Shown piece by piece: positions 1-12,548 of a DNA stretch of 12,548 nt. The first letter of the stretch is position 1. Every line of letters starts with the position of its first letter. Both the position numbers and the translations under genes were made by a program. The notes below the pieces were generated by a model. The model saw only the letters and a list, made by a program, of their open reading frames with translations, was not told the origin of the DNA and searched no databases. Source of the DNA: a virus (Duplodnaviria; Heunggongvirae; Uroviricota; Caudoviricetes); IMG/VR virus record IMGVR_UViG_2778261640_000001, positions 1 to 12,548 of that record, one strand, 5' to 3'.

Positions 1-411
1 ATGCCTGCCCCCGTCGTCCTGATCCTTGCGGCCGGGCGTGGAGAGCGCTTTCTCGCCTCCGGGGGAAATACCCATAAGTGTATCGGCTGGCGTCAGTCCC
101 CGGAGGTTGCGCCTTATCGCTGGCCATTTGAAGAAAACGGGAGAACTTTCGACCTTGCGATTGAACCGCAGATTACGACTAATGATCTGCGTCTGATGTT
201 GAGGCTGACTCTTGCCGGCGGAGGAATAACAATTGCCACTCAGGAAACTTTCAGGCCATATATTGAAAGCGGTAAGCTTGTATCGCTGCTTGATGACTTT
301 CTTCCACAATTTCCGGGCTTCTATCTGTATTTCCCACAGCGTCGCAATATTGCACCAAAGCTCCGCGCCCTGATTGACTACGTCAAAGAATGGCGGCAGC
401 AATTGGCTTAA
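1..411 (+). CDS. LysR-family transcriptional regulator, C-terminal part (5' end outside window); probably host flank
   Basis: ORF runs from the window edge to TAA at 409-411. From about residue 40 the translation reads like a LysR effector-binding domain C-terminus (RWPFEENGRTF, NDLRLMLRLTLAGGGITIATQETF, IESGKLVSLLDDF, FYLYFPQRRNIAPKLRALIDYVKEW). The first 40 residues are less typical. Confidence 0.55.
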   Translation: MPAPVVLILAAGRGERFLASGGNTHKCIGWRQSPEVAPYRWPFEENGRTFDLAIEPQITTNDLRLMLRLTLAGGGITIATQETFRPYIESGKLVSLLDDFLPQFPGFYLYFPQRRNIAPKLRALIDYVKEWRQQLA

Positions 412-671
412 ATGTCTGCACCTGCACTGCCTGATGTCAGAACAGTATTTTGATGAATTGCCAAGGTTACAATGGCACAAATACGGCACAGGAGGAAACG
501 TGGTGTATTTAAATATGGGGTAACTCTTTGATTTTAATGGTGCGATAATAGGAATGAACATTACAAGTTAACACATTGATTTATAATAGATTATAATATT
601 CAAAAAATATAACTATACACATATCTATACACACTGCGTGCGTCGCTTGTTTTTCGCACAATTAAAAATAA

Positions 672-975
672 GAAAAAAATTTTTTTTCGAAAGAACTGTT
701 CACACTGTTCACCTTTCTTTTTTCTCCTTTTATTTCAGTATGATAGGTGGTGAATAATGGGTGAAGGGTGAACATTCGATTCTTCACCTCCGGCATTCTG
801 CCGGTGTGACTCATACCGGTGATTAATCCCCCGTACTAAAAATCGCACAGGGAGAAAAAAGTTTTTTTTGATTTGATTGTTCACACTGTTCACCTTTCGT
901 TTTTCTCTTTTAATTTCAGTGTGATAACGGGTGAATATACGGTGAAGGGTGAACAGTGGATTGTTCACCTTCGGG
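672..975. repeat. crr: crr-like cis replication region: two ~120-bp direct repeats (672-792 and 852-975) separated by ~60 bp, each carrying TGTTCACC / GGTGAACA octamers
   Basis: Hand alignment shows the two copies nearly identical (ctgttcacactgttcacctttc ... atttcagt.tgata ... ggtgaagggtgaaca ... ttcacct). This matches the recalled P4 crr layout and sits immediately downstream of the alpha gene. Confidence 0.75.
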
Positions 976-988
976 GGATTCAGGGATG

Positions 989-1012
989 AAAAAAGACCGG
1001 CAGATGCCGGTC
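989..1012 (-). terminator. Rho-independent terminator of the leftward (alpha) operon
   Basis: On the minus strand an 8-bp inverted repeat GACCGGCA/TGCCGGTC (995-1012) is followed by six T (989-994), 17 nt after the alpha stop codon. Confidence 0.65.
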
Positions 1013-1028
1013 AGATGAGTCATGAGGG

Positions 1029-3362
1029 TCAGGTTGTTGCAGGGTCGTCACATTTTGGCAGCCAGTCGCCGTAGCTTTCCTCTTTCAGCGTCAGGTTGGT
1101 CTGTATCCCCTGTTTGGTATGGCGCTTCTCGTAATTCAGCCCGTATTCCTTCAGCATCACCGGCAGCCCCAGCCCGAACATTTTCAGACTGAGTACATTC
1201 CGGTAGCCGTTTGCCTCCATGTAGGCCAGATAGGCGTGATAGAGGTATTTACGGTAGTTACGCGGGATGATACTGGCGTTCCCCATATACATGCCGCTGG
1301 TCTGCGGCAGGGTTTCCAGATAGCCGATAAAATCAAACGTCGGGTCGGCATCCCGTTTGATGTTCAGTGCCTCGTCTGAGTTCTGCTGGGACTGAAGCAG
1401 TGACCGGGCGAGCATCGGGTCGCTGAACTTCTGCATCAGGTGACGCACGATGACCGCCAGCTCGCGGGTGATTTTGTCCTTAAGCTGCGGGTCGCGCTCC
1501 TGCGGGGCTATCTGTTCCGGGAAGTGAATAATCACCCGCCGGCGTGACACGCCGCCGCTGCGGTCGGTGAAGCGCATCGGGTTATTGTTGACGGCCAGAA
1601 TCACCGCCGGGATATGCGTGGAGTACGCATCCCGGTATTTCGGGTCAACGGACACCGCATCGCCGCCGGTGATGGCCTTGAGTCCGGCTCCGTCGCCGCT
1701 CCATTTTTCCTGGTCCGGCAGGCGTATCAGTGAGAAGCCAGTTAACGCGGCACGTTCACGCGGGGATTCCAGCGTCTCGATGGTGGCCGACGTGGCGTTA
1801 TCCTCCCCGGCCAGCAGGGTGGCTATTTCGGCCATGATACTTTTGCCGCTGCCGCCGGGACCGGTCACCTCCAGAAAGAGCTGCCAGTCGTAGCGGTTTG
1901 CCAGCACCATAAACAGTGCGGCCAGAATCACGTCGCGTTTTTCCGCACGACCACCGGCGGCACGGTCAAGCCAGCGCCAGAACGCGGGAGCGTGGGTTTC
2001 CAGCGTTTCCCCTTCCACCGGCGGGGTGAAATCCACATCGCACAGGGTGCGCATCCAGTGTGACGGACTGTGCGGGTGGAACGAGCCGTTCTGCGTGTCG
2101 AGCACGCCGTTACGAAAGCCAATCAGGCGGCGGGAGGGGGCTTCCTGCTGCGGAATAATCAGCTTCAGGGTGTCCACCACGGAGGCCACCTTCCCGGAGG
2201 AGAACGGCGCGCGCAGCCGCTGAAACAGCCCGGCCACATCCCGGGCAAAGTCCTGTGGTGGCAGCACCTTCCAGACACCATTTTCATAGCGGGACAGAAG
2301 CTGGCCGTTGGCATCGACCGCGAGCGCCTCGCCGTAATGCTCATAGATACGCATGGCCTTTTCGCTGGTACTCATGGCGGAAAACTCCGCTTCGCTCATG
2401 GTGTCGAACGGGCTTTCAGCCGGTGGCCGGATGGCATCATAAATGGCCTTACGGGTGGCTTCCCCGCCGTACTGCGTGAAGGCATCATTCCAGTCACCGA
2501 AGACCGGCGGCAGGGCAACAACACCTTCACACGCATCTGCGGCTGCGGCGGCTTTTGTCTGGCCGTCACCGCTGAGGTCACGGTCAGCAGCAAGGACAAT
2601 CTGACAGGCCGGATGCTTCTGCCGGGCAAGGCTGGCCAGAGAAAGGAGGTTCACGGAAGAAAGCGCCACCATCACCGTTTCACCGGTCAGGTGATGTACG
2701 GTAAGTGCGGTCGCGTATCCCTCCGCTATCCACAGACGTTTTCCGGCCTGATTCTGTCCTTCAAGGGTGTGACAGGTGCCCCTGACCTGTCCGCCTTTCA
2801 GGGTGCGCTTACGGCCGTCAGCACTGATTAACTGAAGGTTAACCAGTTCGCCGCTGTCGTCATACAGTGGCACCACAAGGTCACCGGCGCGCCAGCTCAC
2901 GCCACCGGCTCTGTGTGTGCCGGTCAGCATCCGGCATTCCCGGCCGGGAAAGCCCTTGCGGGTCAGGTAGGCGTTACCGGTTCCGGGACGGGTTTTCGCC
3001 ATCAGGGTTTGTGCCAGTGCGGCGGCGTTCTTCCGGGCGGCTTCTGTTTCAGCACCGGCGGCAGCCGTCACTGCCGGGTCAGCCGGGGGCAGACTGCCGG
3101 TCACGGCAGCCACCTTTGTGGCCGCGTCGGACGGGGAAACACCAAACACCTTTTCAACCAGTTTCAGGCCGTCACCGGCACCACACTGATTGCAGTACCA
3201 GGTGCCGCGCCCCTCCCTGTCATCAAAACGGAAGCGGTCACTCCCGCCACAGACCGGACAGGGCTGATGACGGTTTTTCAGCACCTGAATCCCCAGCGCC
3301 GGGAGAATACGCGGCCAGTGACCGAGCGCATGGCTGACGGTGGCGGTTACGTTCATTTTCAT
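1029..3362 (-). CDS. alpha: P4 alpha-type primase-helicase / origin-binding replication protein
   Basis: 777-aa ORF. N-terminal zinc-ribbon primase signature (CPVCGGSDRFRFDD ... WYCNQCG), a Toprim-like acidic stretch (LAADRDLSGDGQ), Walker A GPGGSGKS and a long C-terminal domain. AGGAG sits 9 nt upstream of the ATG. Length equals recalled P4 alpha. Confidence 0.9.
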   Translation of the reverse strand: MKMNVTATVSHALGHWPRILPALGIQVLKNRHQPCPVCGGSDRFRFDDREGRGTWYCNQCGAGDGLKLVEKVFGVSPSDAATKVAAVTGSLPPADPAVTAAAGAETEAARKNAAALAQTLMAKTRPGTGNAYLTRKGFPGRECRMLTGTHRAGGVSWRAGDLVVPLYDDSGELVNLQLISADGRKRTLKGGQVRGTCHTLEGQNQAGKRLWIAEGYATALTVHHLTGETVMVALSSVNLLSLASLARQKHPACQIVLAADRDLSGDGQTKAAAAADACEGVVALPPVFGDWNDAFTQYGGEATRKAIYDAIRPPAESPFDTMSEAEFSAMSTSEKAMRIYEHYGEALAVDANGQLLSRYENGVWKVLPPQDFARDVAGLFQRLRAPFSSGKVASVVDTLKLIIPQQEAPSRRLIGFRNGVLDTQNGSFHPHSPSHWMRTLCDVDFTPPVEGETLETHAPAFWRWLDRAAGGRAEKRDVILAALFMVLANRYDWQLFLEVTGPGGSGKSIMAEIATLLAGEDNATSATIETLESPRERAALTGFSLIRLPDQEKWSGDGAGLKAITGGDAVSVDPKYRDAYSTHIPAVILAVNNNPMRFTDRSGGVSRRRVIIHFPEQIAPQERDPQLKDKITRELAVIVRHLMQKFSDPMLARSLLQSQQNSDEALNIKRDADPTFDFIGYLETLPQTSGMYMGNASIIPRNYRKYLYHAYLAYMEANGYRNVLSLKMFGLGLPVMLKEYGLNYEKRHTKQGIQTNLTLKEESYGDWLPKCDDPATT

Positions 3363-3376
3363 GGTGTTGTTCTCCT

Positions 3377-3697
3377 TCAGTGCAGTACCGGCGCTTTTAT
3401 GTGACGGGCACAGAGTTCATCCATCACAACCAGCCCGAGAAAGGACAGCGACGGCGCGGCCTTCAGGGGGCCGGATTCCATTAAATCTTCCAGCAGGGCA
3501 CAGGCTATCTGACGCCCTTTTTCCTCACCGTGCTGGCGCAGATAAAAGCCTTCCAGCTCAGCGGCGATGGCCGCCTCCAGTGATTCAAGGGTGAGATGCG
3601 GGTAGCGGTGCTGACGTTCGCACACGGTCAGCCAGGCACAGGCGACAGCACGACGGTAAAGGGCTGCGCGTAAGACGGGCGGTAAGGGTGTTTTCAT
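3377..3697 (-). CDS. cnr: Cnr-like copy-number regulator (P4 orf106 equivalent)
   Basis: 106-aa ORF immediately upstream of alpha in the same operon, with GGGAGG 7 nt before the ATG. Position and length match recalled P4 cnr. Confidence 0.7.
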
Positions 3698-3832
3698 TTG
3701 CTTTCCTCCCTGTGACAGATGACTGCATTCCGTGCCGGTTGCATTAACTGATAAGGCATATCTGCGTCTCCTGAAGACGTGCGTATCCCTGCGCGAATAC
3801 GCACATTTAATTTTTCGGGGGTCGTTTTTTAA

Positions 3833-4288
3833 TTACAGATAATTGCGGTAACTGTTATCCGGGGTGGTTTCCGGGTCAGGCTCCATGCGGGGAATTTCCC
3901 GCCATTCCCGCGCCACCGGTGCCGCCCGGCTGACCGGAACAGGGGCCTGCGGGTAAATATCCAGATATTTTTCCCGCCATTTCTGTAATTCCGGGTCTCC
4001 GGCCATTTCTTTCAGTACCGCATGCCGGTTTACGGGGCTGCGTTTAAACAGGTCAGGACGGTCACAGGTAAATTCCCGCAGAAAACGCCCCAGCGGGATG
4101 TCTGTGGTGCGCCCGTCAGCGAGGATACGCACAAGGATACTGAATTTACGGCGGTACGGGTTCCAGACAATGTCCGGGCAGCGGTACGGCATTTCCCACG
4201 GAATACCGTCTTCCAGAATGCCGACCACGGCCACATCGGGAAAACCGGCAGAACGGTAAATCTCACCGGGCTGGGGAAAATCAAACAT
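3833..4288 (-). CDS. P4 orf151-like protein, function unknown
   Basis: 151-aa ORF with GGGGAGA upstream of the ATG. Its ATG overlaps the last codons of the upstream epsilon-like ORF, suggesting translational coupling. Length and position match P4 orf151. Confidence 0.65.
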   Translation of the reverse strand: MFDFPQPGEIYRSAGFPDVAVVGILEDGIPWEMPYRCPDIVWNPYRRKFSILVRILADGRTTDIPLGRFLREFTCDRPDLFKRSPVNRHAVLKEMAGDPELQKWREKYLDIYPQAPVPVSRAAPVAREWREIPRMEPDPETTPDNSYRNYL

Positions 4289-4568
4289 GCGTCCTGTCTC
4301 CCCGGTCTTTCTGCTGGGCGAGAAAATCGCGGCACAGGCCTTTGGCTTTCAGCTCATTCAGCACAAAATCAATATCTTCATTCAGGTAGCTGAAAATATG
4401 CGGAATGTAGAGCTGATGCAGGCCGGAGAGTTCACGGTGAATCAAATCACCCCCAACAAACTGGGATACGGCGCTGGCGCGGTTGAGCTTATGGTAAGCC
4501 TCAATGCTGAGGTGTTCACGGGCGTCATGACGCGCTGAGACGGTCTGAGGGGCTTTTTTATTACGCAC
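4281..4568 (-). CDS. epsilon: epsilon-like protein (P4 antirepressor position), 95 aa from a GTG start
   Basis: GTG at 4568-4566 is preceded by GGTGGTGGAGGTG and overlaps the kil stop. The track's longer 147-aa version would overlap kil out of frame and lacks a ribosome-binding site. Confidence 0.55.
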
Positions 4569-4758
4569 GGGACACCTCCACCACCGGCAGACGGGCAGCA
4601 AGGGAGAGCACATAGTCACGGACAAGGGAACGGCGGGCGCTGCGTTCATCACCGGCGACGGTGCGAAGCATACAGATACGGGGATGACGGTCTGCGCGAC
4701 GGACAGCCGCAAACACAAAGACAAATTCAGGGTGTGAGGGGGTAAGGGTTGTAGCCAT
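4561..4758 (-). CDS. kil: Kil-like 65-aa peptide, first translated gene downstream of PLE
   Basis: ATG at 4758-4756 is preceded by GGAGG at an 8-nt spacing and gives exactly 65 aa ([12 protein letters not shown]...VVEVSRA) to the TAA at 4563-4561. This is the 3' part of the longer eta frame. Confidence 0.6.
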
Positions 4759-5160
4759 GATGGCAGCCTCCGTTAGATAGCAGGTTACGCTATCGCCGGA
4801 GTTCTCACGCTCAATGGCGATAGCCCAGACGGGGGTGAGAATACCGGCTCTAACGGATACCGGCCAGCCCGGAGGCTGCCCCGCCTGAGCTACCATTGAC
4901 TCTGCGGCATAATGAGCGGACGCGGGCAGGATGCACGGAATGCCATCTGCACGACTGACCACACACCACACCATAATCTGGCGCTCTGTGGCGTTGATTG
5001 CGACACAAAAAAAGACGCATGGCGCGTCATATGTCGCCGTTAGATTGCTCGGGTTCTCACGCCCGGCTGCCGATTTTGCGGCAGCGGAAAAACTATATCC
5101 GCAAATGCCGGAAAAAGGCAAGCCAGAAAAAGGGACTTTTTGCAGAGCGGGCATCATCAT
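4561..5160 (-). CDS. eta: eta-like ORF (about 199 aa), same frame as kil, starting upstream of PLE and spanning the cI/seq region
   Basis: The in-frame ATGATGATG at 5160-5152 overlaps the vis stop. Starting at 5160 gives 199 aa. The frame stays open across seqA, the seqB region and seqC. The track's upstream start at 5205 lies inside vis. Confidence 0.4.
4770..4810 (-). promoter_or_regulatory. seqC-like target, complementary to seqB; overlaps the kil ribosome-binding site
   Basis: Minus strand reads gcgtgagaactccggcgatagcgtaacctgctatctaacgg. Its ends (gtgagaa ... tctaacgg) are complementary to the seqB candidate. Confidence 0.55.
4812..4900 (-). ncRNA. cI: CI-RNA-like immunity RNA; boundaries approximate, seqB core at 4835-4856
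   Basis: Minus-strand ccgttagagccggtattctcac (4856-4835) is complementary to both flanking elements. Exact ends cannot be set from sequence alone. Confidence 0.35.
5037..5062 (-). promoter_or_regulatory. seqA-like target, complementary to seqB, in the PLE leader
   Basis: Minus strand reads gcgtgagaacccgagcaatctaacgg, sharing gtgagaa and tctaacgg with seqC, both complementary to seqB. Confidence 0.55.
5092..5121 (-). promoter_or_regulatory. PLE-like sigma70 promoter of the leftward operon
   Basis: Minus strand -35 TTGCCT (5121-5116), 18-nt spacer, -10 TATAGT (5097-5092). The start would lie about 25 nt upstream of seqA. Confidence 0.5.
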
Positions 5161-5423
5161 GCGTCGTACCCCCGTTTGCGTCCGGCAATGCGCCCGGCCA
5201 TCCATGCGGTGACTTCTGAGTGCAGCCAGGCCACATTTTTACCGCCAAGACTCACCTGCGGCGGAAATTCCCCCTTACGGATGAGTTCATAGATGGTCGA
5301 GCGTGACAGGCCGCACAGGTGCATCACTTCCGGCAGACGTAAAAAACGCTCCTGCGTGATGTCCGGCAGCGGCATCAGTGGCGTCACAGGGGCGGGAGAC
5401 GGGGAAGAAAAAACAGCTTGCAT
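5157..5423 (-). CDS. vis: Vis-like AlpA-family helix-turn-helix regulator / excision factor
   Basis: 88-aa ORF with an AlpA-type motif ([44 protein letters not shown]). GAGG sits 8 nt upstream of the ATG. Length and position match P4 vis. Confidence 0.8.
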
Positions 5424-5525
5424 CGGGCTACCTCGTTAATGTCCATACAGCACCGGATAAGTCCGTCCGGCTTCGGGTAGCGCTTTATTTTGTGAATATT
5501 TTCAGCAGACGCAACAGGGGGGATT

Positions 5526-5543
5526 TGTTCCGGCAGCCTTACA
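5526..5543. promoter_or_regulatory. TGT-N12-ACA dyad, an Ogr/Delta-type activator site, upstream of vis (PLL-like late promoter)
   Basis: TGT (5526-5528), 12 nt, ACA (5541-5543), centred about 110 bp upstream of the vis ATG. Confidence 0.45.
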
Positions 5544-5570
5544 ATGCTTGTGTGTTTTTTGTTCATCTCC

Positions 5571-5600
5571 ACTTAAAGTCATTTAAAGCCACTTAAAGCA
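5571..5600. repeat. Three tandem 10-bp repeats (acttaaagtc / atttaaagcc / acttaaagca)
   Basis: Read directly between the PLL-side dyad and the ori iterons. Function unknown. Confidence 0.5.
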
Positions 5601-5702
5601 ATTCGTAATTTTTATAGTGAAATACAAATCGTTTTTTCTTATTCATTCCCGGCGAATTAATAAAAACAAACAGTAATAAACAGCACAAAAAGCCCATCAA
5701 CG

Positions 5703-5807
5703 GGTGAACAGTGGTGAACAGACGGTGAACAGTCATTACTGCGATTGTTCACCATTTAACTTACTGTATTACTTATCTTTTTTCTTATGGTGAACAGAGG
5801 TGAACAG
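5703..5807. other. ori: ori-like replication origin: six TGTTCACC-type iterons in direct and inverted orientation
   Basis: GGTGAACAG at 5703, 5713, 5724, 5789 and 5799, plus inverted TGTTCACC at 5746, the same octamer as in crr. Flanked by AAACAAACAGTAA direct repeats (about 5665 and 5821). Lies about 4.9 kb from crr. Confidence 0.7.
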
Positions 5808-5885
5808 TAAAATATAAAAAAACAAACAGTAAGCCGGTTTTTCCTGCGACCTTTTCCTGGCTTGCCGGTGTGAGGATGAGTCTCC

Positions 5886-5903
5886 TGTGTCAGGGCTGGC
5901 ACA
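5886..5903. promoter_or_regulatory. TGT-N12-ACA dyad, an Ogr/Delta-type activator site, of a Psid-like late promoter
   Basis: TGT (5886-5888), gtcagggctggc, ACA (5901-5903), centred about 80 bp upstream of the sid ATG. Confidence 0.55.
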
Positions 5904-5974
5904 TCTGCAATGCGTCGTGTTGTTGTCCGGTGTACGTCACAATTTTCTCAACCTGAAGTGACGAGGAGCCGAAA

Positions 5975-6709
5975 ATGTCTGACAACACCATCCCTGAATA
6001 TCTGCAATCCGCGCTGGCACAACTGGAAAAGGCCAGAGCCGCCCATCTTGAGAACGCCCGTCTGATGGATGAGACCGTCACGGCCATTGAACGGGCAGAG
6101 CAGGAAAAAAATGCGCTGGCGCAGGCCGACGGAAACGACGCTGACGACTGGCGCACGGCCTTTCGTGCAGCCGGTGGTGTCCTGAGCGACGAGCTGAAAC
6201 AGCGCCACATTGAGCGCGTGGCACGCCGGGAGCTGGTACAGGAATATGACAATCTGGCCGTGGTGCTGAATTTTGAACGCGAACGCCTGAAAGGGGCGTG
6301 TGACAGCACGGCCACCGCCTACCGGAAGGCACATCATCACCTTCTGAGTCTGTATGCAGAGCATGAGCTGGAACACGCCCTGAATGAAACCTGTGAGGCG
6401 CTTGTCCGGGCAATGCATCTGAGCATTCTGGTACAGGAAAATCCGCTCGCCAACACCACCGGCCATCAGGGCTACGTCGCACCGGAAAAGGCTGTCATGC
6501 AGCAGGTGAAATCATCGCTGGAACAGAAAATTAAACAGATGCAAATCAGCCTCACCGGCGAGCCGGTTCTCCGGCTGACCGGACTGTCAGCGGCAACACT
6601 CCCGCACATGGATTATGAGGTGGCAGGCACACCGGCACAGCGCAAGGTGTGGCAGGACAAAATAGACCAGCAGGGTGCAGAGCTTAAGGCCAGAGGACTG
6701 CTGTCATGA
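5975..6709 (+). CDS. sid: Sid-like external capsid size-determination scaffold
   Basis: 244-aa ORF, coiled-coil-like and rich in A/E/L/Q. GAGGAG sits 7 nt before the ATG. Length and position match P4 sid. Confidence 0.8.
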   Translation: MSDNTIPEYLQSALAQLEKARAAHLENARLMDETVTAIERAEQEKNALAQADGNDADDWRTAFRAAGGVLSDELKQRHIERVARRELVQEYDNLAVVLNFERERLKGACDSTATAYRKAHHHLLSLYAEHELEHALNETCEALVRAMHLSILVQENPLANTTGHQGYVAPEKAVMQQVKSSLEQKIKQMQISLTGEPVLRLTGLSAATLPHMDYEVAGTPAQRKVWQDKIDQQGAELKARGLLS

Positions 6710-7206
6710 TTTACTGCCCGTCGTGTGGACATGTTGCTCACACTCGTCGCGCACATTTCATGGACGATGGCACCAAGATAATGATTGCACAGTGCCGGAA
6801 TATTTATTGCTCTGCGACATTTGAAGCGAGTGAAAGCTTTTTCTCTGACAGTAAAGATTCAGGAATGGAATACATTTCAGGCAAACAGAGATACCGCGAT
6901 TCACTGACTTCTGCCTCCGGCAGTATGAAACGCCCGAAAAGAATGCTTGTTACCGGATATTGTTGTCGGAGATGTAAAGGCCTTGCACTGTCAAGAACAT
7001 CGCGGCGTCTGTCTCAGGAAGTCACCGAGCGTTTTTATGTGTGCACGGATCCGGGCTGTGGTCTGGTGTTTAAAACGCTTCAGACCATCAACCGTTTCAT
7101 TGTCCGCCCGGTCACACCGGACGAACTGGCAGAAAGCCTGCATGAAAAACAGGAACTGCCGCCAGTACGGTTAAAAACACAATCATATTCGCTGCGTCTG
7201 GAATGA
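6706..7206 (+). CDS. delta: Delta-like late-gene transactivator with two Ogr-type zinc-finger modules
   Basis: 166-aa ORF whose ATG overlaps the sid stop (ATGA). Two cysteine modules: CPSCGHVAH...CRNIYCSATF and CRRCKGLAL...CTDPGCGLVF. Confidence 0.85.
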   Translation: MIYCPSCGHVAHTRRAHFMDDGTKIMIAQCRNIYCSATFEASESFFSDSKDSGMEYISGKQRYRDSLTSASGSMKRPKRMLVTGYCCRRCKGLALSRTSRRLSQEVTERFYVCTDPGCGLVFKTLQTINRFIVRPVTPDELAESLHEKQELPPVRLKTQSYSLRLE

Positions 7207-7279
7207 GGGCTGTCGGTTAACACCGGCCGTCGCCGCACACCGTATTTTTATTCTTCAGCATGATGAGAAAGAGATAACG

Positions 7280-7852
7280 ATGGAAAGCACAGCCTTACAG
7301 CAGGCCTTTGACACCTGTCAGAATAACAAAGCAGCATGGCTGCAACGCAAAAATGAGCTGGCAGCGGCCGAACAGGAATACCTGCGGCTTCTGTCAGGAG
7401 AAGGCAGAAACGTCAGTCGCCTGGACGAATTACGCAATATTATCGAAGTCAGAAAATGGCAGGTGAATCAGGCCGCCGGTCGTTATATTCGTTCGCATGA
7501 AGCCGTTCAGCACATCAGCATCCGCGACCGGCTGAATGATTTTATGCAGCAGCACGGCACAGCACTGGCGGCGGCACTGGCACCGGAGCTGATGGGCTAC
7601 AGTGAGCTGACGGTCATTGCCCGAAACTGTGCCATTCAGCGTGCCACAGATGCCCTGCGTGAAGCCCTTCTGTCCTGGCTTGCGAAGGGGGAAAAAATTA
7701 ATTATTCCGCACAGGATAGCGACATTTTAACGACCATCGGATTCAGGCCTGACGCGGCTTCGGTGGATGACAGCCGTGAAAAATTCACCCCTGCGCAGAA
7801 CATGATTTTTTCGCGTAAAAGTGCGCAACTGGCATCACGTCAGTCTGTGTAA
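7280..7852 (+). CDS. psu: Psu-like polarity suppression / capsid decoration protein
   Basis: 190-aa ORF, last gene of the sid-delta-psu operon. Length matches P4 psu. Confidence 0.8.
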   Translation: MESTALQQAFDTCQNNKAAWLQRKNELAAAEQEYLRLLSGEGRNVSRLDELRNIIEVRKWQVNQAAGRYIRSHEAVQHISIRDRLNDFMQQHGTALAAALAPELMGYSELTVIARNCAIQRATDALREALLSWLAKGEKINYSAQDSDILTTIGFRPDAASVDDSREKFTPAQNMIFSRKSAQLASRQSV

Positions 7853-7888
7853 AATTCCCCGAAAATCCGCCTGTTTTTACTGAAAAAA

Positions 7889-7916
7889 GCCATGCATCGA
7901 TAAGGTGCATGGCTTT
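7889..7916 (+). terminator. Hairpin terminator candidate downstream of psu
   Basis: GCCATGCA (7889-7896), 9-nt loop, TGCATGGC (7906-7913), then TTTG. The T tract is short, so possibly a weak terminator. Confidence 0.45.
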
Positions 7917-8016
7917 GCATGCGTTTCCCTGCCTCATTTTCTGCAGACCGCGCCATTCCCGGCGCAGCCTGAGCGTGTCAGTACAACTGCATTAAAACCG
8001 CCCCACAAAGCGGGCG

Positions 8017-8035
8017 GGCGTGGCGGGGAGAGCAT
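8017..8035. other. cos: cos-like site (putative P2/P4-type cohesive end)
   Basis: GGCGTGGCGGGGAGAGCAT matches 16 of 19 positions of the P2/P4 cohesive end as I recall it (GGCGAGGCGGGGAAAGCAC, from memory). It lies between psu and the cargo, where P4 cos is expected. Confidence 0.4.
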
Positions 8036-8052
8036 TGCGCGCCAAGTAATTT

Positions 8053-9675
8053 TTAATTTATTTTTTTATAAAGGCCATCTAACCCAGGTTTCAAAAGAAA
8101 TTGAGATGGAGCCCCGTTCTTAAGATCACCTGAACCATTATACCGTTTCGTAGAATGCATTAGCATAATGCCTTTTCTTGCTCGTGTAATTCCTACGTAA
8201 TGAAGATTTATGCATTGCTGTTCATTTTCGAATACAACATCATAGCTTCCTTCTATGAAAACTCTTTTAGGCAAAATCCAATCATACAGATCCAAATGAA
8301 AAACAAAGTCAAACTCAAGACCTTTAGACTTATGTAACGTCATTATTTGTACTTCATCACTTCTAACATCCAAATAATTATTTTGCATCCTCGGAGTAAC
8401 TAATATCTCTGAAAGAGCGGACTTATGATGCTGCTCGATTTCAGTCCCTAAAAGAGTTACTACAATTTTATTTATTACGTCAATAAGAAAGGCATCTGTA
8501 ACACTTCTAACCTGCTTAATAGCCTTACGGATACGAGTAGCCTCGCTCCTTTTGACACTGCTTCCCAAAACCCCCTCCAAAATAGACTGAGCAGTTTTAT
8601 TTAAGTTATACCTGTAACATAATAAATCATTAACAAGACCAGAAACCTTACCACCAGCCTTTGTTAAATCATTATCCAAATAAGCCCTATTAGAAACAAC
8701 TAAATTATCAGAAACTAGCTCCGCGCAAGCATTGCTTCTTACCAATATAGCAATCTCCTTATTATCAGATATTGAAAATTTATTTTTTACATTATCAAGA
8801 ATTTCACCAATCCATTTAGCTATATCAATTTGATTGCCATCAACACATTTTCTATAAACAAAAATCTCATCACACGGAGCTAGTTGACATTCAAAATCTT
8901 TAATTCTATTGGCGTAATTTACTATAGATGGGTGACATCTGTGATTTACTGTAATTTCCTTATGACAGAAACCACTATCATTCATGAAATCTTTTAGTGA
9001 ATCCGAACTGCGGTGAGAATACAAATAAATTGATTGATCCAAATCACCAACGATAATAAGAGGCATCCCTAGCGTTGGTATGAACTTGAAAACCTGATGA
9101 GTAAAATAACCGGTATCCTGATACTCATCGACAAAAAAACCAATATACTTTGCCATTAAATACCGCTGACAAGAATATGATGTTCTAACTATATAAAAAG
9201 CCAAGTGAGGAAGGAAGTCTAAAATCAACATCCCCTTTAAATAAATATCCCTCAGAGAACCCATGCCCTCAAATGAAGTATTAGAATAAAAATCCACTCG
9301 GTCAAAGTACTTATTTGTCTTATCTTTTAATTCTTGAGAAAGATCTATATACTTTACTACTTCGAGAGCGCTTTCGTTTCTGCCCCATACTTGCCTTACA
9401 AAAGGTAATATTATTTCGTTAATGAAAAACTTATCAATAGTACCAAAGAAGCTAGAATTTAACTCTGCTCCCAATTTTCTACATCTGGATTTTAGCTCCT
9501 CGCTGGATTTATTCGTATATGATAACGCAACAACTCCCTGATAATCCTTGGAATGGGATAAACAGGCAGCAATCTTATGGACGAGTATTGTTGTTTTACC
9601 ACTTCCTGGGCATGCAGTTATAACCAGATTACCTTCGTAATCAATTGCATCTAACTGTTCCTTAGTTAGCTTCAT
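8053..9675 (-). CDS. gajB: UvrD/PcrA/Rep-like SF1 helicase, GajB-like partner of a class 2 OLD nuclease
   Basis: 540-aa ORF with all SF1 helicase motifs read by eye: I ACPGSGKTT, Ia ALSYTNKSSEEL, II FVDEYQDT, III IIVGDLDQSIY, IV VNHRCHPSIVNYAN, V IMTLHKSKGLEFDFVF, VI YVGITRARKG. ATGA overlap with the upstream gene and GAGGTGA ribosome-binding site. AT-rich. Confidence 0.75.
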   Translation of the reverse strand: MKLTKEQLDAIDYEGNLVITACPGSGKTTILVHKIAACLSHSKDYQGVVALSYTNKSSEELKSRCRKLGAELNSSFFGTIDKFFINEIILPFVRQVWGRNESALEVVKYIDLSQELKDKTNKYFDRVDFYSNTSFEGMGSLRDIYLKGMLILDFLPHLAFYIVRTSYSCQRYLMAKYIGFFVDEYQDTGYFTHQVFKFIPTLGMPLIIVGDLDQSIYLYSHRSSDSLKDFMNDSGFCHKEITVNHRCHPSIVNYANRIKDFECQLAPCDEIFVYRKCVDGNQIDIAKWIGEILDNVKNKFSISDNKEIAILVRSNACAELVSDNLVVSNRAYLDNDLTKAGGKVSGLVNDLLCYRYNLNKTAQSILEGVLGSSVKRSEATRIRKAIKQVRSVTDAFLIDVINKIVVTLLGTEIEQHHKSALSEILVTPRMQNNYLDVRSDEVQIMTLHKSKGLEFDFVFHLDLYDWILPKRVFIEGSYDVVFENEQQCINLHYVGITRARKGIMLMHSTKRYNGSGDLKNGAPSQFLLKPGLDGLYKKIN

Positions 9676-11372
9676 AATTCACCTCTAGCAATTTTCAGTG
9701 CATGTATTAGAGGTCTGGCTATATCTTTGCTCTTCAGTTCAGTTAAAAAAGCTTTTTTCTCTTTAATTAACTCACGCATACGTATAGCTTTTTTTCCTCT
9801 CAAATAATCAGCGGCATCATCTAGATTATCCTTACTTGCATAATCAAGAACATGCTTCGAAAAGTCATTAGCAAGATCTCCTTCAAGATCAAAAAAAGAT
9901 ATATAAACGCCGTTAGGATTTATTATTGGTGAAATGGTTCCCCACTTAGTATGCAAAGCTTTACTATCTATAGGAATACTTGAGTTTGGTTCTTTATTCT
10001 CTCCACACAGTGCTAACGCCCTATTTACACCAGCATATTGCCATTCATTCTTATGAGGTACTTTTGAAGCATCATTGTCTGTTCTTACGATCCAATTAAT
10101 ATTTAGAGCTGTTAATATTTTTCTATAAACTTCAAATTGGATACCATCAACAGAAAGAATGCTGATGTTATAATAATCAAGATCAATACTTAATGCTTTT
10201 GCTAATTCAGTGTAAAAAATCACCTCAGATGGTCCCTCGACCAAAAAAACCACGTTAGCAAAAAATGCCTCAGCAGGAATAATACTCATCCGGTAGCCCA
10301 TTCCATCCCATGCAGAGCTAATACAATCAGAACATCCATTACTTGCGGCTAGAGTCTCTCCATCATCATAGTATAGTTTTATGATTGAATCAGGTTTAAA
10401 ATTCACTGCAATTTGGGGTGAGTGGCTTGTAACGATTGCTTGGCCTGGAAGTTTATCGATTAAATAGGCCGCCAATTTTCTTTGCTGGTGAGGAAATAGA
10501 TGTGCTTCCGGTTCCTCTATACAATAGATCACTACTTCACTTTCAACATCATGCTCGCGAACACTTTTTGCTTTCCATAACGCAAGAAGGATTTGGTTAT
10601 TAAACCCATCGCCACCAAGCATTAGTTTCTTCCCATTTGTATTCGCACTTAATTCTAATTTCTCTATAAACTGGTCAATCCCTATTGCACCAGTATCAAG
10701 TTGAACAGTTAATCTATCATGAGTATAGGATAACTTTCTAAGTTCCTCGTTAAGCTCTTCTGTTGCTGATGCAACATAACTTATTCCTTTAACTTTTTCA
10801 TTTACTTCAGTAAGTAGCTTATTTAATTCAGTAAAAACCGCCCCATCATTTTCAGTATCCTTTTCACTACGAACTTCTTGCGCCAATCTTAAAAGATGCT
10901 TCTTTTCAATTTTAATGTATTTTTCAAGATCTCTTTGCGAATTTATATACCTTAGACTTAAACACTTTAAGTAAAATCTATTAGGAACCTCATCAAAATT
11001 GTTATGTTCATGACTAAGTAATATCTTGTAATCCATAGTTAATGATGAAGCAAGATACTTAATGTATGTTTCCCCTTCATCGCTAACATACCCTCCTAAT
11101 TTAGATATTACAGCATCTTCACTAACATCTGTAAACTTGATAGTGATTTCTATATTTTCAACCTGTTCACCTGTCGAATTTACATGAAAGTCATTGCTTT
11201 TTGGTTCTAGATCTAATTCAGATAAACTTTTATCAAGTAATAATCGAATGGCATATAATAGGTTGGTCTTTCCAACATCATTTGCACCTATAATCAAATT
11301 AGTTTCATTAAAATTAATAACAGCATCACAGTAATTCCTGAATCCTTTAATATAAACAGTTTCAATTCTCAT
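9672..11372 (-). CDS. gajA: OLD-family ABC-ATPase plus Toprim nuclease, GajA-like
   Basis: 566-aa ORF. Walker A GANDVGKTN near the N-terminus, Walker B / H-loop (VVIYCIEEPEAHLFP ... IVTSHSPQ), C-terminal Toprim motifs (VVFLVEGPSEV, WIVRTDNDAS). The ATG directly follows the int stop (TAAATG). AT-rich. Confidence 0.75.
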   Translation of the reverse strand: MRIETVYIKGFRNYCDAVINFNETNLIIGANDVGKTNLLYAIRLLLDKSLSELDLEPKSNDFHVNSTGEQVENIEITIKFTDVSEDAVISKLGGYVSDEGETYIKYLASSLTMDYKILLSHEHNNFDEVPNRFYLKCLSLRYINSQRDLEKYIKIEKKHLLRLAQEVRSEKDTENDGAVFTELNKLLTEVNEKVKGISYVASATEELNEELRKLSYTHDRLTVQLDTGAIGIDQFIEKLELSANTNGKKLMLGGDGFNNQILLALWKAKSVREHDVESEVVIYCIEEPEAHLFPHQQRKLAAYLIDKLPGQAIVTSHSPQIAVNFKPDSIIKLYYDDGETLAASNGCSDCISSAWDGMGYRMSIIPAEAFFANVVFLVEGPSEVIFYTELAKALSIDLDYYNISILSVDGIQFEVYRKILTALNINWIVRTDNDASKVPHKNEWQYAGVNRALALCGENKEPNSSIPIDSKALHTKWGTISPIINPNGVYISFFDLEGDLANDFSKHVLDYASKDNLDDAADYLRGKKAIRMRELIKEKKAFLTELKSKDIARPLIHALKIARGEL

Positions 11373-12548
11373 TTACATTTTCCTTAAAAATAACGTTGAA
11401 GAGAAAAAGTTCAACATTTTCCTTCTTTCTTCAATGAATGTTGCATGATTATATGTACCGCGAATTCTATTACTATCAACGTGAGCGAGCTGTAATTCAA
11501 TATATTGAGAATTAAAGCCAGCATCATGTAAAATAGTTGACATCATATGCCTAAATCCATGACCTGTAAGCCTGCCACCGTATCCAAGTCGCTTTATAAG
11601 CTGATTGATAGCGGCCTCACTCATTGGCTTACTCGGATCATTTCGCCCAGGAAAAACATAACGATAGTTGCCTGTCATTGTCTTGAGTTCATTGAGTAAA
11701 TCTAACGCCTGAGTAGACAATGGCACAAGATGCGGCCTGCGCATTTTCATCCTTTCAGCAGGAATTTCCCAAATAGCGTTATCCAGATCAAATTCTTGCC
11801 ATAATGCCGCGCGTAATTCGATGGTTCTCACGCCCGTAATCATCAGTAATTTCGTTGCTATCTGGACAATTTTACTCCCGGTGTAACTCTCTAAGGCACG
11901 CAGAAATTCGGGTATCTCATCAGCTTTTAAGAACGGGAAATGATTGGATTGATGCACTTCGAGAGCGCTGGAGAGATCCGCAGCAGGATTGTACTCCGCC
12001 CTACCTGTTGCAATTGCGTAGCGAAACACCTCGGAGCAACGCTGCCGCACTTTACGCATTTTCTCCAACGCACCACGTTTCTCAATTTTACGCAGTACGT
12101 TCAGCAGCTCTAGCGGTTTAATCTCTCCCACAGGCCTTGTTCCAACATAAGGAAAAATGTCGTTCTTAAACGCTTCCATGATGTCTGATGCGTATCCAGC
12201 TGACCATTTAGCAGATTTAAGTTGATGCCACTCTCTGGCGATCTTTTCGAAGGCGTTCTCTGACTCTGTTTGCAGAGCCAGCTTTTGCTCTTTTCGAACC
12301 TCACTAGGGTTCTTTCCTTCTGCCACAAGTTTTCGAGCTTCATCACGACGGGAACGAGCATCGGCAAGGGTGATCGTTGGGTAAACGCCAAGCGAGATCA
12401 TCTTGGGTTTACCGGCGTAGCGATAGCGGAACCGCCAGCTCTTGCTTCCATTAGGTTCTATAAGCAATGACAAGCCTTGCCCATCCCCAAGCGTATAGGG
12501 TTTATCTTCAGGCTTAGCGCGGCGAATCTGCATATCGTTTAAAGGCAT
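11373..12548 (-). CDS. int: P4-type tyrosine integrase; ATG at the window edge
   Basis: 391-aa ORF. N-terminus MPLNDMQIRRAKPEDKPY is typical of P4-family integrases. The C-terminal catalytic region carries HGFRHMMST and LAHVDSNRIRGTYNHA with the likely catalytic tyrosine. Confidence 0.85.
   Translation of the reverse strand: MPLNDMQIRRAKPEDKPYTLGDGQGLSLLIEPNGSKSWRFRYRYAGKPKMISLGVYPTITLADARSRRDEARKLVAEGKNPSEVRKEQKLALQTESENAFEKIAREWHQLKSAKWSAGYASDIMEAFKNDIFPYVGTRPVGEIKPLELLNVLRKIEKRGALEKMRKVRQRCSEVFRYAIATGRAEYNPAADLSSALEVHQSNHFPFLKADEIPEFLRALESYTGSKIVQIATKLLMITGVRTIELRAALWQEFDLDNAIWEIPAERMKMRRPHLVPLSTQALDLLNELKTMTGNYRYVFPGRNDPSKPMSEAAINQLIKRLGYGGRLTGHGFRHMMSTILHDAGFNSQYIELQLAHVDSNRIRGTYNHATFIEERRKMLNFFSSTLFLRKM

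Follow-up and report, generated by a model that had tools for sequence, protein, structure and literature searches.

A mosaic P4-like satellite prophage, probably at thrW of Escherichia coli, with Gabija as cargo and an exchanged RNA immunity region

We analysed a stretch of DNA of 12,548 nucleotides (nt), hereafter the window, which makes up positions 1 to 12,548 of the IMG/VR virus record IMGVR_UViG_2778261640_000001. The window very probably holds nearly all of an integrated mosaic prophage of the P4-like satellite type, about 12.2 kb long and carrying the defence system Gabija as cargo. We classify the element as an intact Type A P4-like satellite prophage, probably at thrW of E. coli; elements of its kind, and a nearly identical sequence, have been described before. 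A first-pass annotation, made from the letters of the window, had read it as a near-canonical P4 satellite that a P2-like helper would mobilise together with its defence cargo; our analysis supports that interpretation. The window is a textbook P4-like satellite with a catalogued defence cargo, and the work reported here mainly confirms annotation.

Extent and composition of the element

The P4 reference genome (NC_001609/X51522) is colinear with the window in a single piece, P4 4291-11624 aligning with window 674-8016 at 98.0% identity (megablast). In local blastn, 140 mismatches and 3 gaps were counted among 7,344 aligned columns (97.9% identity, E = 0), a resemblance that chance does not explain, and a global alignment showed about 150 scattered differences together with three small indels: one additional A in the spacer of the cis replication region (crr), a 9-bp insertion, GAGTCATGA, directly after the stop codon of alpha (1017-1025), and a 1-nt deletion located 5 nt upstream of sid. 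The insertion is missing from P4 and also from the copy of the element in E. coli HUM3355, the closest genome, which is 99.4% identical over the whole window.

The match to P4 starts at the first base of crr (674) and stops near 8044, about 28 bases beyond the cos cleavage point and about 10 bases past the cohesive end. It covers 63% of the P4 genome; P4 1-4290 finds no nucleotide match in the window beyond its first ~28 bases after cos. The remainder, 8045-12548, is non-P4 sequence that encodes Gabija and a divergent integrase. Two other satellites in IMG/VR (L011 and L012) have the very same block (674-8044; 97.3-97.6% identity) with different sequence beyond its limits, so that this block behaves as a conserved module. 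The G+C content is 50-63% in the backbone and 29-39% in the cargo. The P4 backbone had initially been drawn over 660-12548; this range goes too far on the right, as P4 homology extends only from 674 to about 8044, and falls a little short on the left, where the element itself starts at attR (538-553).

Within the block, the open reading frames (ORFs) predicted at P4 lengths and in P4 order are all present: the ten are intact and uninterrupted, and the alignment that could have returned low identity or broken synteny gave 98% identity, perfect synteny and no frameshift in any of the ten genes. Their lengths are as predicted; kil, however, is not a separate ORF, since it is nested in eta and corresponds to its last 65 codons. 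The iterons of crr and of the origin (ori) were also found at the expected places, all 19 annotated P4 iterons being identical in the window. The replication genes and sites are as follows.

674-974, plus strand: crr, two 120-bp direct repeats (674-793 and 855-974) with five type-1 iterons each; aligned to P4 4291-4590, 10/10 annotated iterons identical
989-1012, minus strand: t-alpha terminator hairpin, conserved with the annotated P4 terminator 4604-4628
1029-3362, minus strand: alpha, primase-helicase and origin-binding protein of 777 amino acids (aa), 766/777 identical to P4; Pfam domains Zn_Ribbon_Prim, Toprim_3, D5_N, DUF5906 and Pox_D5
3377-3697, minus strand: cnr (orf106), copy-number regulator, 106 aa, 106/106 identical to P4; Pfam DUF5375
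3833-4288, minus strand: orf151, 151 aa, 148/151 identical to P4
5569-5806, no strand assigned: ori, three type-2 repeats (5569-5598) and six type-1 iterons (5703-5806); 9/9 annotated P4 repeats identical

Moura de Sousa and Rocha (PMC8628076) define P4-like satellites by the co-localisation of seven components. All seven (int, psu, delta, sid, alpA/vis, epsilon and alpha) are intact in the element; Pfam models support five of them (Psu, Ogr_Delta, Phage_AlpA, Derepression and the primase-helicase domains), and integrase domains were found as well. The genes follow the P4 order (int ... psu-delta-sid ... alpA-epsilon-alpha), with att between int and alpha. The size from attR to attL is about 12,170 bp, with the last ~180 nt lying outside the window and taken from HUM3355; it falls within the 5-20 kb range of the P4-like family, whose median is about 10 kb. 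At least 80% of the window is contained in 27 complete E. coli genomes.

The proposed organization has two parts. The conserved block, running from the start of crr to just past the cohesive end and 98% identical to P4, would supply replication (alpha, cnr, ori and crr), RNA-based immunity (the PLE promoter, seqA, CI, seqC and kil/eta), excision control (vis) and helper exploitation (epsilon, delta, sid, psu and cos). The variable arc would consist of a two-gene Gabija system, replacing P4 gop-beta-cII in the cos-proximal hotspot, and of a tyrosine integrase from an unrelated lineage that targets thrW.

Compared with P4, the element shares the crr-to-cos block at 98% nucleotide identity, with its gene order, protein lengths and ori/crr iterons, as well as the PLE-seqA-CI-seqC architecture, the late operon sid-delta-psu and the position of cos. 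It differs in the integrase, which is 439 aa and acts at leuX in P4 but is 391 aa, 38% identical and located at thrW in the element, in the exchange of gop-beta-cII for gajA-gajB, and in total size (11.6 kb in P4, an inferred ~12.2 kb here). The term near-canonical leaves aside the differences in the cohesive end and in the RNA immunity code, next to those in the integrase and att site and in the cargo. Being 98% P4 is not the same as behaving like P4 when integration site, cargo, cohesive end and RNA immunity have all been exchanged. Phage P4 itself was rejected as the identity of the element, with only 63% of P4 matched and an Int that is 38% identical.

The very high identity to the P4 reference over that 63% is also what would be seen if a laboratory phage P4 or an engineered P4 vector had been carried into the assembly. 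We give this origin practically no chance. It is refuted by the presence of the same element in 27 natural isolates, by chromosomal flanks common to wild isolates and by the 38% identity of Int; the integrase and att site differ from those of P4, and the substitutions against P4, about 150 in number, are scattered.

Some of the differences between the window and P4 may be accounted for by possible errors in the P4 reference sequence, which dates from 1990. At P4 8692-8693 (window 5085-5086), GC is found in P4 alone and CG in all 16 other elements of the survey described below, and Delta residues 72-73 (window 6919-6924) show a CG-to-GS swap between P4 and the window. Both are probably compression errors in the 1990 sequence.

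Gabija cargo and the probable thrW integration module

The arc between cos and the right end of the window, together with the left boundary of the element, contains the following features.

8053-9675, minus strand: gajB, UvrD-like helicase, 540 aa; PADLOC GajB, E = 3e-224
9672-11372, minus strand: gajA, ABC-ATPase with an OLD-type Toprim nuclease, 566 aa; PADLOC GajA, E = 4e-261
11373-12548, minus strand: int, tyrosine integrase, 391 aa; Pfam Arm-DNA-bind_3, Phage_int_M and Phage_integrase
538-553, no strand assigned: attR core TGGTGCGATAATAGGA, an imperfect copy of the tRNA-Thr 3' end and the left boundary of the element
614-633, plus strand: two TATACACA repeats, located by a direct search of the sequence; they are separated by 12 nt and lie between attR and crr

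Gabija is recognized by adjacent GajA and GajB. The two genes are adjacent here, both PADLOC matches are full length, and the catalytic motifs are intact: GajA has the Pfam domains AAA_15 and OLD-like_TOPRIM with the Walker A, Toprim Glu and DxD motifs, and GajB has UvrD-helicase and UvrD_C with helicase motifs I and II. The system is predicted to be active. GajA is identical to WP_001356949, and GajB carries one substitution relative to WP_001356948.

The psu-int interval beside cos is a published defence hotspot of P4-like satellites (Rousset 2022, PMC9122126). Table S1A of that study repeatedly lists the pair WP_001356949 and WP_001356948 between psu and int, and its Table S1B gives system #6, with 153 occurrences, as 'Gabija (Doron et al., 2018)', a label that the pair received by homology. 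Against the representatives of that study, the window proteins are identical at 399/399 and 398/399 of the residues shown. Satellites with system #6, such as those of HUM3355 and RM14723 (NZ_CP027103), have identical GajA and Int, a GajB one residue off, and the same cos-adjacent position. The HUM3355 copy nevertheless shows 84 differences from the window, including a compensatory three-site change in segment 1 of the immunity RNA and its targets and the window's 9-bp insertion after alpha.

The stop codon of int abuts the start of gajA (11370-11375), and gajA and gajB overlap by 4 nt (9672-9675). As int-gajA-gajB leaves zero intergenic space, either the three genes share a transcript or any Gabija promoter has to be located within int.

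Int shows no nucleotide match to P4 and 38% protein identity to the 439-aa P4 Int; it is identical to WP_001580016.1, which adjoins tRNA-Thr (thrW) in HUM3355. At that locus, int lies 163 nt from tRNA-Thr, beside proA, and the other end of the element abuts a LysR-type pseudogene and paoD. An attL core, TGGTGCCGATAATAGGA, is located at the 3' end of thrW beside int and matches the attR core of the window, though imperfectly, over 16 nt with one base missing. The putative thrW integrase module is represented by the integrase domains and attR in the window and, at the HUM3355 locus with its 99.4% identity, by attL and the tRNA. The window ends at the start codon of int (12548), and attL and the tRNA-Thr gene would lie a short way beyond it. 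Matches in further E. coli genomes begin at window 520-536; because of this limit and of the attR core at 538-553, we assign window 1-537 to the host flank. Repeats similar to the TATACACA pair, with the motif ATACACA, occur between int and thrW in HUM3355, and we regard the pair as candidate arm-type integrase binding sites.

The host flank contains, at 1-411, the C-terminal part of a LysR-type regulator, a pseudogene in RefSeq. Phage phi458 (OP434518.1, from E. coli MC1061) is 99.3% identical to the window over 1-559 only; its record labels the ORF in the LysR part as 'tail assembly protein', with IS1 and a Pin invertase as neighbours. This 'complete phage genome' looks like a K-12 cryptic-prophage region at thrW, and the 'tail assembly protein' label looks wrong.

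Helper exploitation and the cohesive end

The genes and sites related to the helper and to excision are all located within the conserved block.

4281-4568, minus strand: epsilon, helper-prophage derepression protein, 95 aa, 94/95 identical to P4
5157-5423, minus strand: vis/alpA (orf88), excisionase-regulator, 88 aa, 87/88 identical to P4; Pfam Phage_AlpA
5885-5940, plus strand: Psid late-promoter region, TGT-N12-ACA sites of the Delta/Ogr type, conserved with P4
5975-6709, plus strand: sid, capsid size determination scaffold, 244 aa, 242/244 identical to P4
6706-7206, plus strand: delta, late-gene transactivator, 166 aa, 163/166 identical to P4
7280-7852, plus strand: psu, polarity suppression and capsid decoration protein, 190 aa, 188/190 identical to P4
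7975-8044, plus strand: cos region, aligned with P4, P2 and 186-like (Eganvirus) phages
8017-8035, plus strand: 19-nt cohesive end GGCGTGGCGGGGAGAGCAT, whose P4/P2 counterpart is GGCGAGGCGGGGAAAGCAC

The backbone proteins are full length and 96-100% identical to those of P4. Epsilon matches Pfam Derepression (E = 8e-51), its mechanically called ORF being 147 aa from a TTG; Delta retains all eight zinc-finger cysteines and gives two Ogr_Delta hits; and Psu matches its Pfam model with E = 3e-88. Sid has no Pfam model and was identified through its identity to P4 Sid. Psid at 5885-5940 would function as it does in P4.

In the presence of a P2/186-type helper, epsilon and delta would cross-activate late genes, the helper capsid would be remodelled to the small size by Sid and Psu, and the helper terminase would cut cos, so that the satellite would be packaged with Gabija included. 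The identity, integrity and arrangement of these parts are read directly from the DNA. Because the seven core components are intact and cos is present, we infer that helper-dependent mobilisation by a P2-type phage is a reasonable prediction. A precedent exists in the P4-like retronphage phiR73, which also bears a defence cargo and whose transduction by a P2 helper has been shown (PMC6868368). By its description, phiR73 is a similar mosaic of a P4-type backbone, another integrase and tRNA site, and defence cargo; it differs in having a retron as cargo, integration at selC and another immunity specificity. Gabija here rides a vehicle that P2/186-type phages can plausibly carry between strains.

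The cos region is itself a composite. Homology with P4 and with the two IMG/VR satellites stops at 8044. On its left side, cos is of the P4/P2 type, whereas T5 and T19 of the cohesive end and the following TGCGCGCC are of the 186-like (Eganvirus) type, and the cohesive end is 18/19 identical to that of 186-like phages. With a P4-type left and a 186-type right, the recombination boundary of the hotspot (the P4/186 junction) therefore lies inside cos. Position 14 of the cohesive end is a G in the window, in HUM3355 and in the two IMG/VR satellites, HUM3355 and the window showing no differences in the cos region.

The right half of cos could mean that the element is adapted to a 186-like (Eganvirus) helper and not to P2, in which case the P2 prediction would be right only at the family level. 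Besides the 186-type bases, the best phage matches to the cos region, which are Eganvirus genomes at 95% identity, speak for such an adaptation. Epsilon, Delta, Sid and Psu, however, are 98-99% identical to the P4 versions, which work on P2, and the left half of cos is P4/P2-type; we consider a 186-specific helper unlikely, but worth keeping in mind. P4 with a P2-type cos is also packaged by 186, and the two cos variants are thus probably interchangeable.

Several observations weigh against the reading of an intact satellite prophage mobilised by a P2-type helper. The cohesive end is only 16/19 identical to that of P2/P4, three of its 19 bases being different. Its G14 occurs in no P2-like phage searched; no helper with the exact cos variant is present in the phage collection, where the best match reaches 95% identity, and in IMG/VR the exact variant occurs only in the two other satellites. 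No helper phage is visible within the window. Neither attL nor the tRNA is inside the window, where no tRNA gene was found, both being seen only in HUM3355. The element is about 5% longer than P4 (11.6 kb), and part of its length (~180 nt) is inferred from a relative. Finally, a promoter and terminator scan of the cargo revealed no promoter for gajAB above chance, counts being at or below those of shuffled sequence.

Points of this kind raise the question of a cryptic, decaying P4-like remnant, inherited vertically without excision, replication or packaging, in which Gabija would in effect be a fixed chromosomal defence island. Degradation is frequent among P4-like elements, with alpA pseudogenes as an example (PMC8628076), the 16-nt attR core is an imperfect copy of attL with one base missing, and the cos end has a substitution seen in no helper. 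The backbone ORFs, int and both Gabija genes are nevertheless all uninterrupted, and no damage is seen in the iterons, in the Psid sites or in the pairing of CI with seqA and seqC. Moreover, the element is present nearly unchanged in 27 genomes of several hosts and continents, and the matches start or end at different flanks, which argues for recent mobility. A decaying remnant is thus a most improbable account of the window, and an intact, probably mobile P4-like satellite carrying Gabija is the reading that we retain.

RNA immunity region and its alleles

The immunity region retains the P4 architecture, and its specificity has probably changed. Its components are listed from the promoter onwards, followed by the genes.

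5092-5121, minus strand: presumably the PLE promoter, as assigned in P4; TTGCCT - 18 nt - TATAGT, identical to P4 over the stretch
5037-5060, minus strand: seqA, upstream CI target; segment 1 at 5054-5060, segment 2 at 5037-5044
4813-4900, minus strand: CI immunity RNA (C4 antisense RNA family); Rfam RF01695, 75.2 bits against a gathering score of 45; the fold is predicted
4849-4856 and 4835-4841, minus strand: CI pairing segments, CCGUUAGA and UUCUCAC, respectively
4770-4808, minus strand: seqC, downstream CI target; segment 1 at 4802-4808, GUGAGAA; segment 2 at 4770-4777, UCUAACGG
4561-5160, minus strand: eta, 199 aa, starting at the ATG at 5160; Pfam Phage_ASH; the mechanically called ORF is 214 aa from an upstream ATG
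4561-4758, minus strand: kil, 65 aa, the last 65 eta codons, in frame from an internal ATG

SeqA lies within Rfam hits to isrK and c4-a1b1 at 5008-5098 on the minus strand (RF01394, 72 bits; RF03163, 49.5 bits), both above their gathering scores. Kil is known as a truncated form of Eta (PMC10111431), and the PLE transcript is terminated once CI has paired with seqA and seqC (PMC4825925, PMC3632133). In the prophage state, CI RNA acting on seqA and seqC of the PLE transcript would thus bring about termination before the replication genes.

In the window, CI pairs with both seqA and seqC by Watson-Crick pairing at 7/7 and 8/8 positions. Segment 2, however, differs from P4 at four of its eight bases, and it does so in a matched fashion in CI, seqA and seqC: in seqA (5037-5044), P4 TTCACAGG becomes TCTAACGG in the window, the same change is found in seqC (4770-4777), and in CI (4849-4856) P4 CCTGTGAA becomes CCGTTAGA, which is the complementary change. 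Cognate duplex energies are similar, -20 and -28 kcal/mol for the window and -21 and -26 kcal/mol for P4, whereas cross pairings between window and P4 lose 6-12 kcal/mol; on P4 segment-2 targets, window CI pairs at 5/8 positions, four of them Watson-Crick. Judged from these pairings, the element is probably heteroimmune to P4 despite 98% identity. Segment 1 is common to both, and a partial cross-reaction with P4 immunity may for that reason occur.

In HUM3355, it is segment 1 that changes relative to the window, from GUGAGAA to GUGGAAA in seqA and seqC and from UUCUCAC to UUUCCAC in CI. Variation of this region was followed in a survey of 17 elements: the window, P4, HUM3355, the two IMG/VR satellites and twelve E. 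coli genomes sampled at regular intervals along the ranking by similarity. A degenerate CI pattern gave no match in the genome contig collection, and a shorter CI pattern gave three contigs in the viral contig collection, none of them similar to the window; the survey was therefore built from E. coli genomes.

Three alleles of segment 1 and four of segment 2 were found among the 17 elements, and 9/12 possible combinations were seen. The copies in seqA, CI and seqC agree in every element, giving 7/7 and 8/8 pairs; the only mismatch lies in the seqA of one element. Pairing was found in 99.6% of seqA-CI cells across the survey and fell to 40-54% once the partner was shifted by 1-3 columns; compensatory change is found in 9/15 seqA-CI pairs, and no shuffle reached the observed covariation score. 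Exact 32-mers detected the segment-2 alleles in 277 (P4 type), 159 (window type), 249 and 215 of 5,426 complete E. coli genomes. The same genome set yielded 1,258 immunity regions in total.

Sequence variation clusters at two places, the RNA immunity region and, upstream of CI, a 9-nt indel block. In all 15 genomic loci fetched, the Vis/AlpA accession is the same (WP_001149160.1), and the accession of Eta, whose gene contains the RNA sites and overlaps vis downstream, varies from locus to locus.

The principle that a few bases set immunity specificity is already known from P4/phiR73 and P1/P7. Sabbattini and co-workers reportedly found in 1996 that the immunity specificity of phiR73 is set by seqB, seqA and seqC. 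The c4 immunity of P1/P7 likewise relies on a processed antisense RNA with two short segments that pair with repeated targets on its own operon transcript, and a few base changes in the pairing segments set its specificity. The P4-type system differs in that transcription ends prematurely, before the replication genes are reached, and in that the targets lie on either side of the RNA gene (PMC4825925).

All together, we see an even chance that the element is heteroimmune to P4 as part of a wider pattern, in which the P4-like satellites of E. coli carry a combinatorial two-segment RNA immunity code, with at least three alleles of segment 1 and at least four of segment 2, each allele being written three times and its copies changing in concert. 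No population-level description of such a code was found in the open literature searched, and it is the one aspect of the window that might deserve follow-up. A rule by which co-resident satellites must differ in their immunity alleles was considered and is not supported: E. coli CFSAN061771 (NZ_CP042896.1) harbours three P4-like satellites, two of which share GUGGAAA/UCUAACGG and the Eta protein, the third being different, and shared immunity therefore does not prevent co-residence.

With the clean natural covariation series of the immunity region, sequence would suffice to predict which co-circulating satellites are cross-immune. If the combinatorial code is true, immunity specificity in this family changes fast and in modules, as the defence cargo is known to do.

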